Shown: positions 7,398 through 23,189, numbered from the whole stretch's first letter. The stretch: DNA of 62,770 nt, filler included, from Collodictyon triciliatum (GCA_043381765.1; 17 parts of 17 records of this genome joined end to end with filler, not necessarily neighbours in it); one strand, 5' to 3'. The notes: generated from the sequence alone by a model not told the origin. Numbers and translations: made by a program.

Positions 7398-9238
7398 CTA
7401 GACATTTTCATCTTTTTCATCCGAATCGAGGTCAATCATCGCTCTCAGTGGTCGAATAGGTTCCAGTCGGCTAGAAGATGACGCGGTGCCTCCTCCAGTT
7501 AATGGAGTTGGAAGAGCCGTATGAGAGTCAGCTTCAAATTTAATGTGAGTGTACCACATGAGACCCAGAATGGATAGTATAATTCCCATCGAATTCATCC
7601 ATGTAATAGGGTAGTTAAACTGTAAGTATCCTACGAATATCACAATGATGGTTTTGAAATGACCCATCACGTTATATCTAATTTAATGTAATTTTTTTTT
7701 AATAATAATAAATTAATAGTCAAGACTGTAATTAAATTTTCGATCAGGGAAAAGCCATTGTTATTAGGAAAATGATTACAACATAGAAAATGAGCTCGAT
7801 CCCAAACGAAATCGAGAGTGAGGAAAAAGAAAATATTTACGTCAATGGCCCCGCTAGATCAATTAGGAAATAGTTGCTCAGGTTAAATACAAAAGCCAGA
7901 ATAGAAGATAAAAGGATAATGTGCTGTTTGTTGGATTGTACTGATTAATCATAAAAATAAACATACACGACTAATTTGGATATTACTATTTCATTTACTC
8001 CATTCAAAGAATTTGTATATTATTTAAATATAGTCATTCTATTTATTGCTATTATTTTTTACGATGGATACGGGGACATGAGTGATTGCATCATATTAGT
8101 TCTTAAAATAAGAATTACCACTAGCGAGCCTGTCATCTCAAATTCAAGGAGTCCTTCTCTTCCAGTGATATTATCGAACGCTGGTGTCAAAAGCACTAAG
8201 AATAGTGACGAGAGAGGCGCTTGGTAATAGAGAAGCTGCATGCTGTTGACCCCCAGCTCCTTATGCTTTGATCCTGTCAGCTTCCATATATACGTCCAGT
8301 TTATTCAGTGTATTTGCGTGTTATAACTAATGAAACACAGATTTCGTTTGGATCAATCATTAGCATTTGAAAAATATTTTTAAGTGTACCACTTGACTCC
8401 CAGCCTTGGCAAACTCTCCCAGAACAGCGATAATAGAGCCAACAAGATTAAGTTCAACATCAGTAAAAGTAGCGAGACCGATTCCGACGCATGTGCAAGC
8501 GAGAGATAGTTTTAAACGATGGGAAAAGTACGCCCCATAAAAAATGCTCTGTATTAAAACTACTAAAGGGATGGTAAACGCTTTCATCACTTGGTAAAAT
8601 CCAACAGAATTATACTGCAGGCTCAGATTATTCAGAGTAACAAATAATGCATGCATGAATGAGAGAGTAAAAACATCTCTGTATTTTAGGGATTTCTTTT
8701 GTAGCACTCCAGCCAACATGCATAATCGAAGACCAATAGAGCAAACGGCAAAATGAACCAAAGTGATGAATGTACCTATGCCAAAAAGAAATTACACCAA
8801 TGTCCGATAGTGGCTTTTTAATTTTTCTTCGTAGTTGTTTGATTTTATTTTATTTTATTTTATTTTATTTTATTTTATTTTATTTTATTTTATTTTATTT
8901 TATTTTATTTTATTTTATTTTATTTTATTTTATTTTATTTTTAGTGAATATTAGAATTTAGATATATGTATATCTGCTGCAAATATAAGACTTCAAAAAA
9001 AGATAGATAATTTACCAAAGTTGAAATTATAGAAGTAGAAAATGGACTTGTTGACGGAGACCAGCAAGATGGAGACAACAATGTTGAATAACATTGAAAG
9101 ACCCACGTAGCAACTTCTCTCAAGCATGCGTTTACTTCCTATACCATACTCTGCCCTCCAGAGTCCTCGTTGGACCATTTTACTTGGTGGTCGCATCGGA
9201 GTGAGTCGTGGAACTTCTGCTACAACTTGAATGAGCAT
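7398..9238 (-). CDS. Nucleotide-sugar transporter, SLC35E3/UXT-like (triose-phosphate transporter family), 5 exons
   Basis: Spliced motifs NIVVSILLVSVNK, LNNLSLQYNSVGFYQVMK, MQLLYYQAP, NLSNYFLI..AGPLTYNVMGHFKT; multiple TM helices; canonical GT-AG introns in consistent phase. Confidence 0.9.
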
Positions 9239-16547: not shown

Positions 16548-16863
16548 TCCGCCGCCTGTGGAAGCTTGGGTCAAACGAGAAATAGCGGGTGATCATTGTT
16601 GGAAGGGAGTTGTGAGAGGCCCGTTGCTCCGGATAATTCCTTCTCCCTTTCTTTTGTCCTGTTCTTTCTTCTTTTCTTTTCTTTTCTTTTCTTTTCTTTT
16701 CTTTTCTTTTCTTTTCTTTTCTTTTCTTTTCTTTTCTTTTCTTTTCTTTTCTTTTCTTTTCTTNNNNNNNNNNNNNNNNNNNNNNNNNNNNNNNNNNNNN
16801 NNNNNNNTTAATTAATTAANNNNNNNNNNNNNNNNNNNNNNNNNNNNNNNNNNNNNNNNNNNN

Positions 16864-16973
<110 letters not shown>

Positions 16974-17029
16974 GCAATAATAACAACATAGGTAAATAGT
17001 AGATAAATAGATAAATAATCTTATATTAG

Positions 17030-20000
17030 GCTCGATTCCGAAATTTGGCAACATTCCTAGAATCGAATCGATATACTGTTATGAAAATCAGCTCAATGGT
17101 AATCAATCATGTAATTTCACCAAACCTAATATATTTCTAATAGCTGATTTGCAGGAACCATACCCAATTTCGCTAATATTAAGAACATCGAATTAATTGA
17201 AATGTCCAACAATCAATTGGATGGTAAGATTCTAATCGGTTGAATGAATATAGTTCTCTATCTTACCATTAAATAACACAGGGTTTATTCCAGATTTTGA
17301 TAGCATTCAAAATGTCAAAAGTATTTTTTTATACAACAATAGATTCACAGGTTTGTTTGTTTTTTTCATCTGGAGTATATTATAGACATATATTTAACCC
17401 AATTGTGCACAGGAAATATACCAGATTTTTCTAATATCTTGGATATCGAAGTGATGCTTCTTTACGGCAACAGATTGACCGGTTAGTAAATATAAGTTTT
17501 CAGCAATTATCTACGTCACATAATTTTTTCTTTGTCTTCGTTTAGGAATGATTCCAGACTTTAGCAGAATCCCAATATCAAATTTATATACTTGGATAGG
17601 AATCAACTAATTGGTAATATTTTTTTTTAAAACTTTAAGTTCCTATATGCTAATAATTGATTACAGGACAAATTCCAAACTTCAGTTTGATTCCAAGAGG
17701 GAGAACAATTTACCTTGATAACAACCAGCTGAATGGTGGGTCACATTTCTTAAAAAAATAAATTGCATTTCATTTTCTGAACGAATTTACAATTCCAGGC
17801 ACTATTCCAAACTTTAAAAATCTCCGAGATATAGAGTATTTTTCTGTCTCTGACAATAACATTGAGGGCTCGGTTCCAAATTTCGAATATTGTACCAATA
17901 TGAAAGAAATAATTCTTTTCAGAAACCGTCTGAATGGAGTACTTCCTTCTTTCAAATTACATAACCTAACCAGATTAGATCTAAGTGAAAATCATATTAC
18001 AGGGGCTATTCCTGAAAATTGGAGTATAAAATCGATACAATATATAGATTTATCAAGAAACCAGATGACTAATACAATACCATACAATTTTCAGTATTTT
18101 TTGGAACTGAAATCACTAATTCTATCACATAATCAATTCTCTGGTGGAGTGTCCGCTGGATTATGGAACCTGCCCCATATAGTTGCGATTGATTTGAGAA
18201 ACAATTCATTCTCTGGTGACATCGGAGAATTTATGGTGCCAAATTTAGAAAACTTTGAATTTTTTTATCAAAGTCTATTTCTGGATGATAATAATCTCCA
18301 CGGAGAGGTAAACTGGAGGATTTTTGGTTACGTTTTAAATATTAAAACATTCAGTATTAAGAGGAACAATATTACTCGCCTAGATGAGCTAACAAATTTA
18401 TTAAAATGGACATATCTCGATCTTACTGGTAACCCTATTGTGAATAATATTCCTGAATCTTTCAAATTATTTTCAAAGCTTGAATACCTGGGATTAAAGG
18501 ATACGCTCATGAATCATGAGAATTTTAACTTTCTTCCTGGATTTATGAATTATGCAACTCCTTTCCGTCTGGAGGACCAATCAGAATTATATCTCTGTCC
18601 TTCTACTAAATCGAAATCAGGTCTCATAGAATTAATAGTTGAAATAAATCCAACATACTATGATTACGAGTTTTGTAAATGCTTGCCCGGATATTTTGGA
18701 TTTCGAGATAGTTGTATTCAATGTCCGAGGGAATGTCTATGTCTTGATGGGGTTAGTTTGAAATATTGTCATGCTTCACCAAGTGCAACTGAGGTAAAAT
18801 CAATTCTTCCATGTCCAAGACCAGAATCATGTAGCACGTTAATCCCTGACAAGACATCCAGATCAAATAAGACAGTAGCAATAAATCATCTATGCGAAGA
18901 TGGATATGAAGGTCATGCTTGCTCAAAATGTCAAAAAGGATATGGAAATCAAGGCTGGGCATGCGAAAAGTGTGATAAAGTTAATATTTATCTCACTTTG
19001 ATATTCAGCTCCATAGGATTTTCCATATTTATGACCTACCTTTACTTTTCAGAAGCATCCAAATCAGGTTGGTTCACATGTTCATCAAAGCATAGTATTA
19101 AATACTGCGAACTAATACATTTTTTCAGCTAAACTTAGAATCATCTTGTTCCACATGCAAACACTTTCTATAGTCTCAGCTGGGTTAACCAAGTCAGAAG
19201 ATGCAAACTCTTTTATTGATTTTTCATCCTCTATAAGCTCAATGAAATATCCTAATATTTATTGTGTCTTGGATATCAATAATGTTTATGATACCCTCCT
19301 GCTTAGTTTTGCTAGGATACCTATATTCATTATTATTGGTTCCATTATGTACCACTTTGGATATGGACATAGACAAAACAAGGTTTGCATCAGTTATGAT
19401 TACATTTATTCTCTCCTATTGAAGACAACTTAGTAATATTAATATCATAAACTAGGCGGTCTTTGTCACTTTGAATCTTTTGTTCCTTATTTACTATTCA
19501 GTGGCAAGAGAAGTTTTTGGCGTCTTTGGGTGCACTGTTTATGATGATGGTGAAGATATGTGGTATCTGAATTATGTACCCTGGATTCAATGCAGCCCAG
19601 CTTCAGATGAATATCGAAAACTAGTTGCAATATCTATTCCTGTTTTTGTTTTATATTTGATCGGGCTACCAGTTTTTGTATTATGGAAAGTGAGAATTAT
19701 GTCTGAAAGACCTGGCTATGAACCAGGAGCGAGATATGGATTCTTGTACCTGCCATACAAAGAAGTATGTTTTTTTATTTTTTTTTTTAAAAACACAGCC
19801 ATCATCATGCACGGATTGAAAGGAAGAATAAAAATTTCAATTTTAATGTGCTCGTTTAGAGTTTCAAGTATTGGGAATTCGTCATTATTGCTCGTCGTAT
19901 CGCCTTTTCGTTTATCCTTAGCGTCATTCCGTACACCAAGCCATCAATTTTCTTTCTGCTTCTTGTAATCGTCATTCAGGTTTGATTTCCAATAGTAGAC

Positions 20001-20300
20001 GTTCAAATTATTGTCTTAATTGTTTTATCACACACCTTATTCTGTAATTTATTATTCTAGGGCTCTATTTGGATGCAAAAAGGATACAAACCATACAACT
20101 CTAAAACTGAAAATCAAATGGAGTTGTCCAGTTTATACATTATTTTTGTTTCTTTCTTCCTTGCACTCTTATCGACTTTGCTTGGTTCGCAAACATGGAT
20201 TACCATATCTCTAATTGGCATGAATTCAGTATGGTTGCTTTATTTCACCAGTATTGCTCTTGTTATTCCTCTTTTTCGTGGAGGCACAATCAAACAAAAA
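17030..20300 (+). CDS. LRR ectodomain + Cys-rich region + ~9-TM receptor-like protein (partial at both ends; one LRR exon frameshifted)
   Basis: Six 68-69-nt LRR exons precede a long exon 17799-19067 carrying more LRRs and CKCLPGYFG...C...CEDGYEGHACSKC. The TM exons contain RYGFLYLPYKE|SFKYWEFVIIARR and KPYNSKTENQME, motifs typical of protist TRP/Flc-like multipass receptors. Confidence 0.85.
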
Positions 20301-20659: not shown

Positions 20660-23189
20660 ATGAGCACACACTTATTTCCTCGGTTGAGCAGCCAGCCTTA
20701 CCCTGAAACGACTGTCCTTCCGATCAAGGATGTTTGGCTTCGGTCTGATCAACCGGCGCCACCGTCTAACGTTTGCTGCTGCAGGCATCCAAGTATTTCA
20801 GCCAGGGATGGAGTTCAAAGACGGGAAAGGCGTCCACGGGGATCACCAAGTCTCGTCTTCCCGCAAGCGGCAAAAGGACGTGATGATGCCCACCAGCCAG
20901 CAGCAACAGCAGCAACAGCAGCAGCAACAACAACAACAGCAACAACAGCAACGTGAGAATAGAGTGGCTTACCGCAGAACAAAAAAAAAAAAGATAAAAA
21001 AGTTAATTATAGCAAAAGATACCGAAAAGACAATTTAAAAGCAATTAAAAAAGCAATTAAAAAAGCAATTAAAAAAGCAATTAAAAAAGCAATTAAAAAA
21101 GCAATTAAAAAAGCAATTAAAAAAGCAATTAAAAAAGCAATTTTAAAAGCAATTAAAAAAGGCAAATAGACCAGATAGTAAACATATTATGATAAACAAA
21201 GTTAAAAAAATATCTTAAGGTTTTGAAGCACACCATCGAACATATTAAGAAACTCTAAAATAAAGAAAAGAAATTAGAGACCACAAAGCCATGAAATATT
21301 GCAGAAAATATTATTATGCACTGGCCCATTTAAACTATGCATCCAATCACGGTCTTAACTGCAACTGAAGACAAATCTCAGTTACTTATCATTCACCACC
21401 TATTACCAACTATTGACCAATAAAAATTCATTCACGTCTGGTTGTACTGTACTCCAGCTCATATGCAGCAAGTCCGAATCGACTATGACAACCACGGCCC
21501 CATCCCAGAGGAACCACCAGTAGACGTCCATGAACTCTTTCAGACTGTCCGTCGCATCGAATCCAAAGTCGATCATCTTCTCCATCTAATGAGTCAGAGG
21601 ATTGCCATGCCCTATTCGATTCAACCCGCTGCAGAACCGGTCCCTCTTAAGCGCTCACGAGTGTCTTCTACAATTACTCTTCCTGTTTGTGTTGCTTCAT
21701 AATGACATGCACGCCCTCGATATCACAGTCACAGTCACAATCACAATCACAATCACAAAAAAACTACAGAATGAAGCATCTTATGAAAATGAATACAAGA
21801 CAAGTTTGATATACAAGAGCATTATCCATGATGATAGTTTTCATTCTCATCATGCTTTTTTTTTTTAAAAAAAAATGAACGCGTTATCCTCGCATCGAAT
21901 AATGGGTCTGTTTCGCTCTGCTCCTGGGCACAAAAGATGTCGACCCGGCTGATGATACGCACGCTGGCTTGTACCAACCCCTTGGTAAATGTGTGGGACC
22001 ATATTGTGAAGATGATGCAAAGGGCACAGGAAAAACATCCTTCTGAAATTACTGAGATGGAGATGGATTTGAATCGCATTCGAGGGGACTGTGGTGTGAA
22101 TCAAAAATATTTACAGGATAAGGTATTTCTTTATCATAAAAATGACTACAGGAAAGAAAAAGCATCAATATACCTATCAGGGATAGAGGCTTACTTGATA
22201 AGGAGATGAGAAAAAAAATAATTTTATTAGCCCTTGATATGCTTAGAAACACTAAATTCACTTACCACATAGGTGATCGAGTACTTCTACTCATTCAGGA
22301 GGTCTGCGAAATATCACGCAGGAGAAGCCTTTATACTCTGTTTCATTAAGTAATTTTGAGAATTTAATCCCATCGATTCTTAAATCACCTTGCACTTTTT
22401 ATATTACCTCTCTAAATTATAACCATACAAATATTTATTCCATAATAAATTAAAAAATCAATAAATAAAATTTATAATTTATTCTATATAATATATCATA
22501 AAATAAAACGTGGACTGGGAATACGCTTGAACACATGTCATCGATTGTTTTATACACACATTGAGATTTCACCTCGTCAATCTTACAAGTAACAAATATT
22601 TCAACAACTTATTGAAGAGGAACGCAAGATCGGATTCATGCAGACCACCTGGATCCAGACTGCACAAACCTCCACGACGCTGGACCATCGGATGCAGAGG
22701 ACGAATCAAAGACGGGAGAGCAAATTGCTTTAATGGTCAAGCGAGACCCTTCATTCAGGGTGTTCTGGAAAGCAGGCTCCAACTCAAAATACCGAGCTTC
22801 TTTGACCACATGGCTGAAGAATGTCGGCATGGAAGAAAGCTTCGATACTGAGCCCACATTTCGCTTCTTCGTAAATACCTTATCAATTTACATGCATTTC
22901 TTATGCGTTAGTAGTGTTATATAGATTCTTATCCGAGGTATCATTTTTTCCTTGATTTTCCTTCCATTTGTTTATTTCTGACTTGTCTTTGCAGATTGAC
23001 CTGTACATGCAGAACTACCATCTGAGCAGTAGCAACAAGGCCAAAGAGACGTTCAAGCACATTCGATTGGAGCTCGAGGAAGAGCTTAGAGCGCGTGGCG
23101 TCTGCTCCAAGGAAACTGATGAAGTGATTGGGGATGTTCAAGATTTTGAGTCCATGTCCAAAATCATCATTCCAAAGTTTAAGTCATAA
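20660..23189 (+). CDS. Hypothetical multi-exon protein with a polyQ tract
   Basis: Several GT-AG-bounded open exons (polyQ ~20897-20951; 21459-21660 with VHELFQTVRRIESKVDHLL; ~21937-22122; ~22620-22870; 22995-23189). First exon unresolved, no family recognised. Confidence 0.5.
21036..21160. repeat. 12-bp tandem repeat (AAAAAAGCAATT)n in an intron
   Basis: About 10 units seen directly. Confidence 0.9.

Follow-up and report, generated by a model that had tools for sequence, protein, structure and literature searches.

How should a row of exons of equal length, each carrying exactly one leucine-rich repeat (LRR), be read when it stands in a gene for a multipass membrane protein: as a set of cassettes with which a protist diversifies a receptor, or as the trace of the way in which a repeat protein once grew? 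The question is raised by positions 17030 to 17735 of a 62,770-nucleotide stretch of DNA from Collodictyon triciliatum (GCA_043381765.1), hereafter the window, where six such small exons precede the longer exons of what appears to be a surface-receptor gene. An earlier reading of the window, which we call the original prediction, had taken these exons for cassettes. Our analysis indicates that the one-LRR-per-exon array is real and not a chance pattern. As for its meaning, we find it probable, although well short of certain, that the gene encodes a multipass LRR surface receptor whose small exons are constitutive and arose by tandem exon duplication; the data favour such a static origin over an active generator of diversity.

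The six small exons, with their coordinates in the window and their strand, are:

17030..17098 (+), LRR exon 1, 69 nt, phase 1-1, GSIPKFGNIPRIESIYCYENQLN
17155..17223 (+), LRR exon 2, 69 nt, phase 1-1
17282..17350 (+), LRR exon 3, 69 nt, phase 1-1
17413..17481 (+), LRR exon 4, 69 nt, phase 1-1
17546..17613 (+), LRR exon 5, 68 nt, with a frame break in the C-run 17571-17573
17667..17735 (+), LRR exon 6, 69 nt, phase 1-1

All six are preceded by AG and followed by GT, and the introns behind exons 1 to 6 measure 56, 58, 62, 64, 53 and 63 nt, every one with GT..AG borders, so the positions of the array and the intron lengths of about 53-64 nt had been given correctly. Since the exons end in G and the next exon starts with GA, GG or GC, the introns are of phase 1 and lie within a glycine codon, again as claimed. 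Each of the five intact small exons encodes one 23-residue LRR unit of the form GxIPxFxxIxxIxxIxLxxNxLx, and the five beta-strand strings that had been quoted (ESIYCYE, ELIEMSN, KSIFLYN, EVMLLYG and RTIYLDN) are exact. The statement that every exon carries one 23-residue LRR holds for these five and fails for exon 5, whose broken frame the original prediction had not flagged. An equal-length array of this kind is recognised by one common length, divisible by 3, and one common phase; here five of the six exons are 69 nt long, one is 68 nt, and the phase is 1 in all six. Moreover, tblastn shows cDNA-derived proteins of Diphylleia rotans to match exons 1-4 and 6 in the correct frames. The six exons are 42-64% identical to one another in nucleotides and 39-57% in amino acids, and their introns are unrelated.

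Behind the array the same strand carries the rest of the gene as far as the contig reaches:

17799..19067 (+), exon 7, 1269 nt, phase 1-1; about 10 LRRs, a Cys-rich stalk with weak likeness to DUF7630, and the first transmembrane (TM) helix, TM1
19129..19382 (+), exon 8, from phase 1 to phase 0; TM2 and TM3
19456..19764 (+), exon 9, phase 0-0; TM4, an extracellular Cys-bounded hairpin (GCT..WYLN..PWIxC), TM5 and an RYGFLYLPYK motif
19860..19979 (+), exon 10, phase 0-0; TM6 and the start of TM7
20061..20300 (+), exon 11; TM8 and TM9, open at the contig end, with the C-terminal tail missing

The introns upstream of exons 8, 9, 10 and 11 are of phase 1, 0, 0 and 0. In exon 7 some ten LRRs follow one another without an intron, which agrees with the earlier statement that the membrane-proximal LRRs lie in a single long exon, and Pfam identifies LRR_4 there at 62.4 bits (cut-off 27), LRR_1 at 58.7 (20.6) and LRR_8 at 58.3 (27), all above the curated cut-offs. 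Spliced together, the eleven exons give a model of 868 residues, with an X at the exon 5 break, which is collinear with residues 419-1287 of P0126, a cDNA-derived protein of Diphylleia rotans with 1309 residues, with gaps of at most 3 residues. Against a second relative, P0207, the model covers residues 531-1412 of 1445, with a single 23-residue gap that falls exactly at the exon 4/5 junction. The collinear alignment to P0126, a protein known from cDNA, speaks independently for the reality of the small exons, and it gives each of the six a counterpart in the mRNA of a relative. The full-length Diphylleia forms have in addition a signal peptide, an LRRNT-like cap and about 20 more LRRs, and judging by these relatives an N-terminus of about 420-530 residues with just these parts would lie off the contig.

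To what family does the protein belong? A phmmer search with the 103-residue TM exon returned 85 clusters at E<=1e-3, 40 of them at E<=1e-10, so the paralogue family on which the original prediction depended is present; to judge from sequence similarity it is large in Diphylleia. Among 20 representatives that we looked up, 16 come from Diphylleia rotans, one from Anaeramoeba ignava and one from Aphanomyces astaci (named as a DUF7630 protein). A search with exon 7 brings up one close fragment, P0001, at 58% identity, and after it generic LRR receptors of plants with 25-34%; among longer proteins the Diphylleia transcripts are best, with 39-41% identity across 98% of the query, and two more related fragments show 69% and 56% identity. 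The Diphylleia proteins (EukProt EP00002, e.g. P0126 and P0207) have the same domain order and the same 22-23-residue LRR started by Gly; compared with P0126 and P0207, the LRRs are 38-40% identical, the stalk 43-49% and the TM part 45-46%. They belong to a different species or are paralogues, the full-length forms reaching at best 41% identity to exon 7, and are known from transcripts alone. The intron positions appear to be conserved within the family, since the genomic fragments P0001, P0123, P0129, P0141 and P0143 read a few residues beyond the same intron junctions, and the first extra residue at the second junction is V, that is, a GTN codon. Retained-intron-like tails also follow '..IQ' in P0136 and P0237. 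Neither the window pieces, nor the 19 full-length relatives scanned, nor the family tally of 46 gave a hit to Roc/COR of the ROC-COR GTPases. We note separately that in four Diphylleia rotans members (P0125, P0131, P0162 and P0245) the LRR array is preceded by FG-GAP_2 repeats or NIDO domains, which suggests that the family ectodomain is modular beyond the LRRs.

Freshwater metagenomes add some information on the source. Contigs of 151-256 nt from runs X1, X2, X3 and X6 match parts of the gene within 17486-19046 with 0-3 differences, which implies that the source organism or a very close strain lives in fresh water; these four runs provide DNA contigs over parts of the gene and are uninformative on splicing, and a look for RNA runs of the source organism found none. 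Over 19450-19574 and 20108-20182 there are other metagenome contigs, at 85-90% identity, which have the appearance of paralogues or of sequences from related species. In a scan of metagenome contigs with the exon-7 alignment, 0 of 18 pattern matches were confirmed as relatives. Two contigs from a scan with the TM alignment, L001 and L002, were rejected: they are GC-rich (52% and 60%), have long overlapping open reading frames and carry no LRR signal.

For the membrane domain we turn to a model. The AlphaFold2 (AF2) model of the TM domain of the relative P0208, computed with the family alignment as input, has a predicted local distance difference test score (pLDDT) of 89.3 and a predicted template modelling score (pTM) of 0.83, and contains 8 TM helices with a Cys-bounded hairpin between the third and the fourth. 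Counting TM1, the domain is thus predicted to have 9 helices, with its N-terminus outside. The original prediction had spoken of a TRP/Flc-like domain of about nine helices; the helix count stands, while the TRP/Flc family is supported only remotely. PF06011 (TRP) matches 10 of 46 family members at E<=0.01, the best at 6.6e-7, and the scores listed for two relatives, 23.1 and 19.3 bits, lie below the curated cut-off of 28.5. When scanned singly against Pfam, the window TM exons matched no family. In a feature-based atlas, which we treat as a lead only, the top neighbours are PF06011-bearing clusters, at 0.97 and 0.96. Foldseek against the PDB with the AF2 model of a relative's TM domain gave no match at E<=0.001, and the best Z in a wide VIA-align search was 7.4 (Hrd1), inside the noise range for helical bundles, with no match to a solved TRP/PKD2 channel. 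The TM domain would therefore resemble the Pfam TRP/Flc family remotely, by matches that are unconfirmed above the curated cut-off. DUF7630 (PF24633) reaches 17.6 bits on exon 7 (E 0.0042, curated cut-off 27); it matches 16 of 46 relatives at E<=0.01, with 30.9 bits in P0136.

These features suggest the following picture. The 868 codons of the region would come from the middle and the 3' part of a gene whose product would be a multipass surface protein in type-I orientation. In this protein, from outside to inside, a long extracellular solenoid of plant-type 22-24-residue LRRs would be followed by a Cys-rich stalk and by a 9-helix membrane domain, a putative remote relative of the fungal TRP-like/Flc/Pkd2 family. 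The six phase-1 exons of the 69-nt type would most likely be constitutive. The solenoid would have grown via tandem duplication of an exon-plus-intron unit, of which the small exons would be the trace, and the membrane-proximal repeats would now share one exon. Presumably the ectodomain binds an external ligand, such as the surface of prey, of a bacterium or of a substrate, and the membrane domain relays a signal, perhaps as a cation flux; because the PF06011 matches are unconfirmed and no solved structure matches, this signalling step is one that we infer.

Could the small exons act as cassettes after all? As the original prediction had it, the symmetric 69-nt exons would be skipped, chosen or shuffled to yield many ectodomains for the recognition of prey, pathogen or self. 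The geometry would allow this: the small exons and exon 7 are of phase 1-1 and multiples of 3, so that any small exon can be skipped or duplicated with the frame preserved, as had been pointed out. The size of the paralogue family and the additional 23-residue module of P0207, sitting exactly at the exon 4/5 junction, are also in keeping with cassettes, and there are precedents in Ectocarpus and Saccharina in those parts of the reports that we draw on (PMC3341825, PMC11378527). However, near-identical modules are absent both within this gene and among the 23-residue modules of its relatives. We parsed 387 LRR modules, mostly of 22 or 23 residues, from 32 family proteins; for the 184 modules of 23 residues, 3 of 16,836 pairs reach at least 70% identity, all three between isoforms of the same gene, and the 99.9th percentile is 61%. 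Neither near-identical exons nor relic exons in introns, the signs of ongoing shuffling, were seen in the one gene available from the source genome, and introns of only 53-64 nt leave no room for spare exons. Comparisons of Trinity isoforms among the Diphylleia relatives point the same way: 30 of 32 pairs have no difference in LRR modules, one shows a module swap and one a half-module deletion of 12 residues, and the other isoform differences are N-terminal truncations, small loop variants and retained-intron-like tails. Nor does the LRR part seem clearly more diverged than the stalk or the TM part, the identities to P0001 being 53% in the LRRs, 64% in the stalk and 53% in the TM part, and those to P0126 38-40% in the LRRs against 45-49% in the two other parts. 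With old, divergent exons, no recent module duplicates and mostly collinear isoforms, the claim of an actively diversifying cassette system is not borne out, and we regard it as unlikely. Several observations nonetheless weigh against our own account of static, constitutive exons. In Diphylleia rotans, P0131 and P0219 differ from P0220 at residues ~700-735 by one swapped module (22 versus 23 residues), exchanged exactly between Gly residues, in proteins that are otherwise 99.9% identical across 1754 residues. This could reflect exons that exclude one another or, between alleles, an exchange of a whole exon; further substitutions close by in the swap isoform fit an allele or a paralogue of recent origin. 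Positional conservation is weak in the distal modules: compared with P0126, the collinear partner is the best match in only 2 of 8, a count that cannot be used for or against purifying selection, and in the small-exon region the variable positions are identical to those of relatives at 11-21 of 76-78, so barely conserved that the plasticity of the distal array may exceed that of the other parts. Near-identical metagenome contigs show four coding differences: two, in a contig 99% identical to the gene, are non-synonymous and fall at x positions flanking the conserved Asn; the other two are synonymous and lie elsewhere. Finally, constitutive splicing would be read solely from the relatives, and the TRP/Flc link from PF06011 matches below confirmation and with no solved structure to match. 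If these hints were followed to their end, the distal exons would, in this lineage of Diphylleia relatives, be used combinatorially, by skipping or mutual exclusion, and exchanged one by one between paralogues or alleles, giving a family of channel-coupled receptors variable ligand-binding faces with which to recognise prey or microbes. Such a system, to which we give a decidedly low probability, would be the third case in which LRR exon cassettes evolved independently, and the first of them joined to a polytopic TRP-like domain.

Two further alternatives to a constitutive, functional receptor gene concern the broken exon and the membrane domain. The assembly does show 68 nt in exon 5, and if this were a true frameshift, reading through the exon would shift the frame; the gene could then be a decaying pseudogene, or exon 5 could be dead and skipped, which would preserve the frame as its neighbours are of phase 1-1. 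But the break is the sole defect in 868 codons, and GT..AG is intact in 10 of 10 introns. Each half of exon 5 fits the LRR consensus in its own frame (MIPDFSRI and NIKFIYLDRNQLI) with all framework residues kept, a counterpart of the module is present in P0126, and the break lies inside a C homopolymer of which a natural 69-nt version exists: a 151-nt contig from freshwater metagenome run X2, spanning 17486-17635, has one additional C behind 17570 (depth 2, single contig), by which exon 5 becomes 69 nt long and the frame is restored. The same contig shows three other differences, two of them in the intron. We therefore hold decay of the gene or of its exon 5 to be very improbable; most likely, the 68-nt length arose because the assembly miscounted the homopolymer, or because this strain acquired a frameshift very recently. 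As to the membrane domain, it might be no signalling or channel module at all, and the protein an adhesion molecule or scaffold anchored by a polytopic domain of unrelated function. This would be consistent with the window TM exons finding no Pfam family at the curated cut-off, with the negative Foldseek search and with a top VIA-align Z that helical bundles reach by noise. On the other side, the same distant resemblance to PF06011 comes back in 10 of 46 members and in the atlas, and no part of the protein is better conserved than the TM domain, with 43-46% identity to three of the four Diphylleia relatives compared and 35% to the fourth, P0156. A pure anchoring role thus strikes us as doubtful, and a constitutively spliced receptor remains our preferred reading of the gene.

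We now turn to the setting of the gene. The window consists of 17 small contigs, mostly of about 3.4-3.5 kb, chained by 16 linkers of the form N44-TTAATTAATTAA-N44, so that genes on either side of a linker have no physical linkage. The G+C content of the pieces spans 30% to 66%, which suggests that more than one organism may be present in the window. The LRR gene is on piece 16864-20300, which is 3.4 kb long, has about 32-34% G+C and cuts the gene off at both ends, starting in a (TAA)n microsatellite and ending within a coding exon. The microsatellite is the remaining feature of this piece:

16864..16975, no strand assigned, (TAA)n microsatellite at the contig start, in the intron that precedes exon 1; the gene's 5' part falls outside the contig

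On the 16 other contigs of the window, a hidden Markov model built from this gene's own LRR units found no further LRR exons below E of about 0.1. A long (CTTTT)n microsatellite lies at a contig end, at window 16650-16763, and a 12-nt tandem repeat, (AGCAATTAAAAA)n, lies within the next contig at window 21030-21150; such microsatellites and tandem repeats are probably the cause of the fragmentation of the assembly. Elsewhere, the piece with 66% G+C contains a 795-residue open frame (56730-59117, plus strand) with a protein kinase (PK_Tyr_Ser-Thr, E 2.5e-18) followed by Sel1 repeats (E 7e-59), whose base composition is far from that of the LRR gene's contig. An open frame at 52951-53958 (minus strand) matches zf-RVT (E 8e-9), a reverse-transcriptase-associated zinc-binding region, and is probably a retroelement remnant, and an exon-like frame at 8360-8791 (minus strand) matches the triose-phosphate transporter family (TPT, E 1.4e-11).

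What, then, does the locus contribute? The array is best explained as the mark that tandem exon duplication has left in an LRR domain whose exons would now be spliced constitutively, and on the similarities described here the gene belongs to an uncharacterised family of LRR/Cys-rich/TRP-like receptors in a protist related to Diphylleia. An LRR solenoid combined with a Cys-rich stalk and a TRP/Flc-like domain of nine TM helices, expanded in Diphylleia rotans, would indicate an undescribed receptor architecture; in the literature that we searched the term 'DUF7630' is absent, and 'Diphylleia' never occurs together with 'leucine-rich repeat'. Since a static origin of the exons is favoured, the present value of the finding is mainly descriptive.

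How does this gene compare with systems that are already known? In plant LRR receptors the repeats are 24 residues long and the membrane is crossed by one TM helix only, whether or not a kinase is present. The plant LRR receptor-like proteins and kinases share the GxIP of the LRR consensus and are the best named matches outside the family, at 25-34% identity; their kinship to the gene described here is limited to the repeat type. Another parallel is offered by the fungal PF06011 proteins, among which we take Flc1 of S. cerevisiae and Pkd2 of S. pombe to be members. In these proteins, too, a large extracellular N-terminal domain precedes a polytopic domain with about 9 helices; unlike theirs, the ectodomain here is composed of LRRs and a Cys-rich stalk and not of the fungal N-terminal domain. 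The roles of Flc1 and Pkd2 are treated in the sections of PMC9600462 and PMC9727806 on which we draw.

For the array itself the nearest parallels are found in brown algae and ciliates, the comparison extending as far as the portions of the reports used here. In the brown-algal LRR-ROCO genes, with their 'type I LRR exon' arrays, one LRR occupies each 72-nt exon, the phase is 2 and the register starts with Gly, GxxPxxLxxxxxLxxLxLxxNxLx; the arrays contain near-identical exons and non-coding LRR relics in introns, and alternative transcripts, shuffling and positive selection have been described (Zambounis 2012, PMC3341825; Teng 2024, PMC11378527). The array in Collodictyon agrees with them in having one LRR per exon, a uniform length divisible by 3, a uniform phase and the Gly-start register. 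It differs in its length of 69 nt and its phase 1; moreover, the brown-algal proteins are cytosolic ROC-COR GTPases, whereas the gene here is predicted to encode a membrane protein and has no ROC-COR hit, and neither of the brown-algal signs of shuffling, near-identical exons and intron relics, was seen in its array. In Tetrahymena, in turn, LRR exons of 90 bp with introns of phase 2 number in the tens of thousands, a pattern that the authors read as exon shuffling (Xiong 2019, PMC6564038). There, as here, a protist LRR family is built from arrays of equal-length exons with an extreme phase bias; yet the Tetrahymena LRR genes, in the part of that report drawn on, are mostly without TM domains, while here six exons are in view, of 69 nt and phase 1, fused to a predicted 9-TM domain. 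Next to the 72-nt arrays of Ectocarpus and the 90-nt arrays of Tetrahymena, the array is the third case of a known layout, and an independent one. For brown algae and ciliates, arrays of LRR exons that share one length and one phase have been proposed as engines of receptor diversity, and an instance in an unrelated and poorly sampled protist lineage, with 69 nt and phase 1, shows that the layout has arisen repeatedly.

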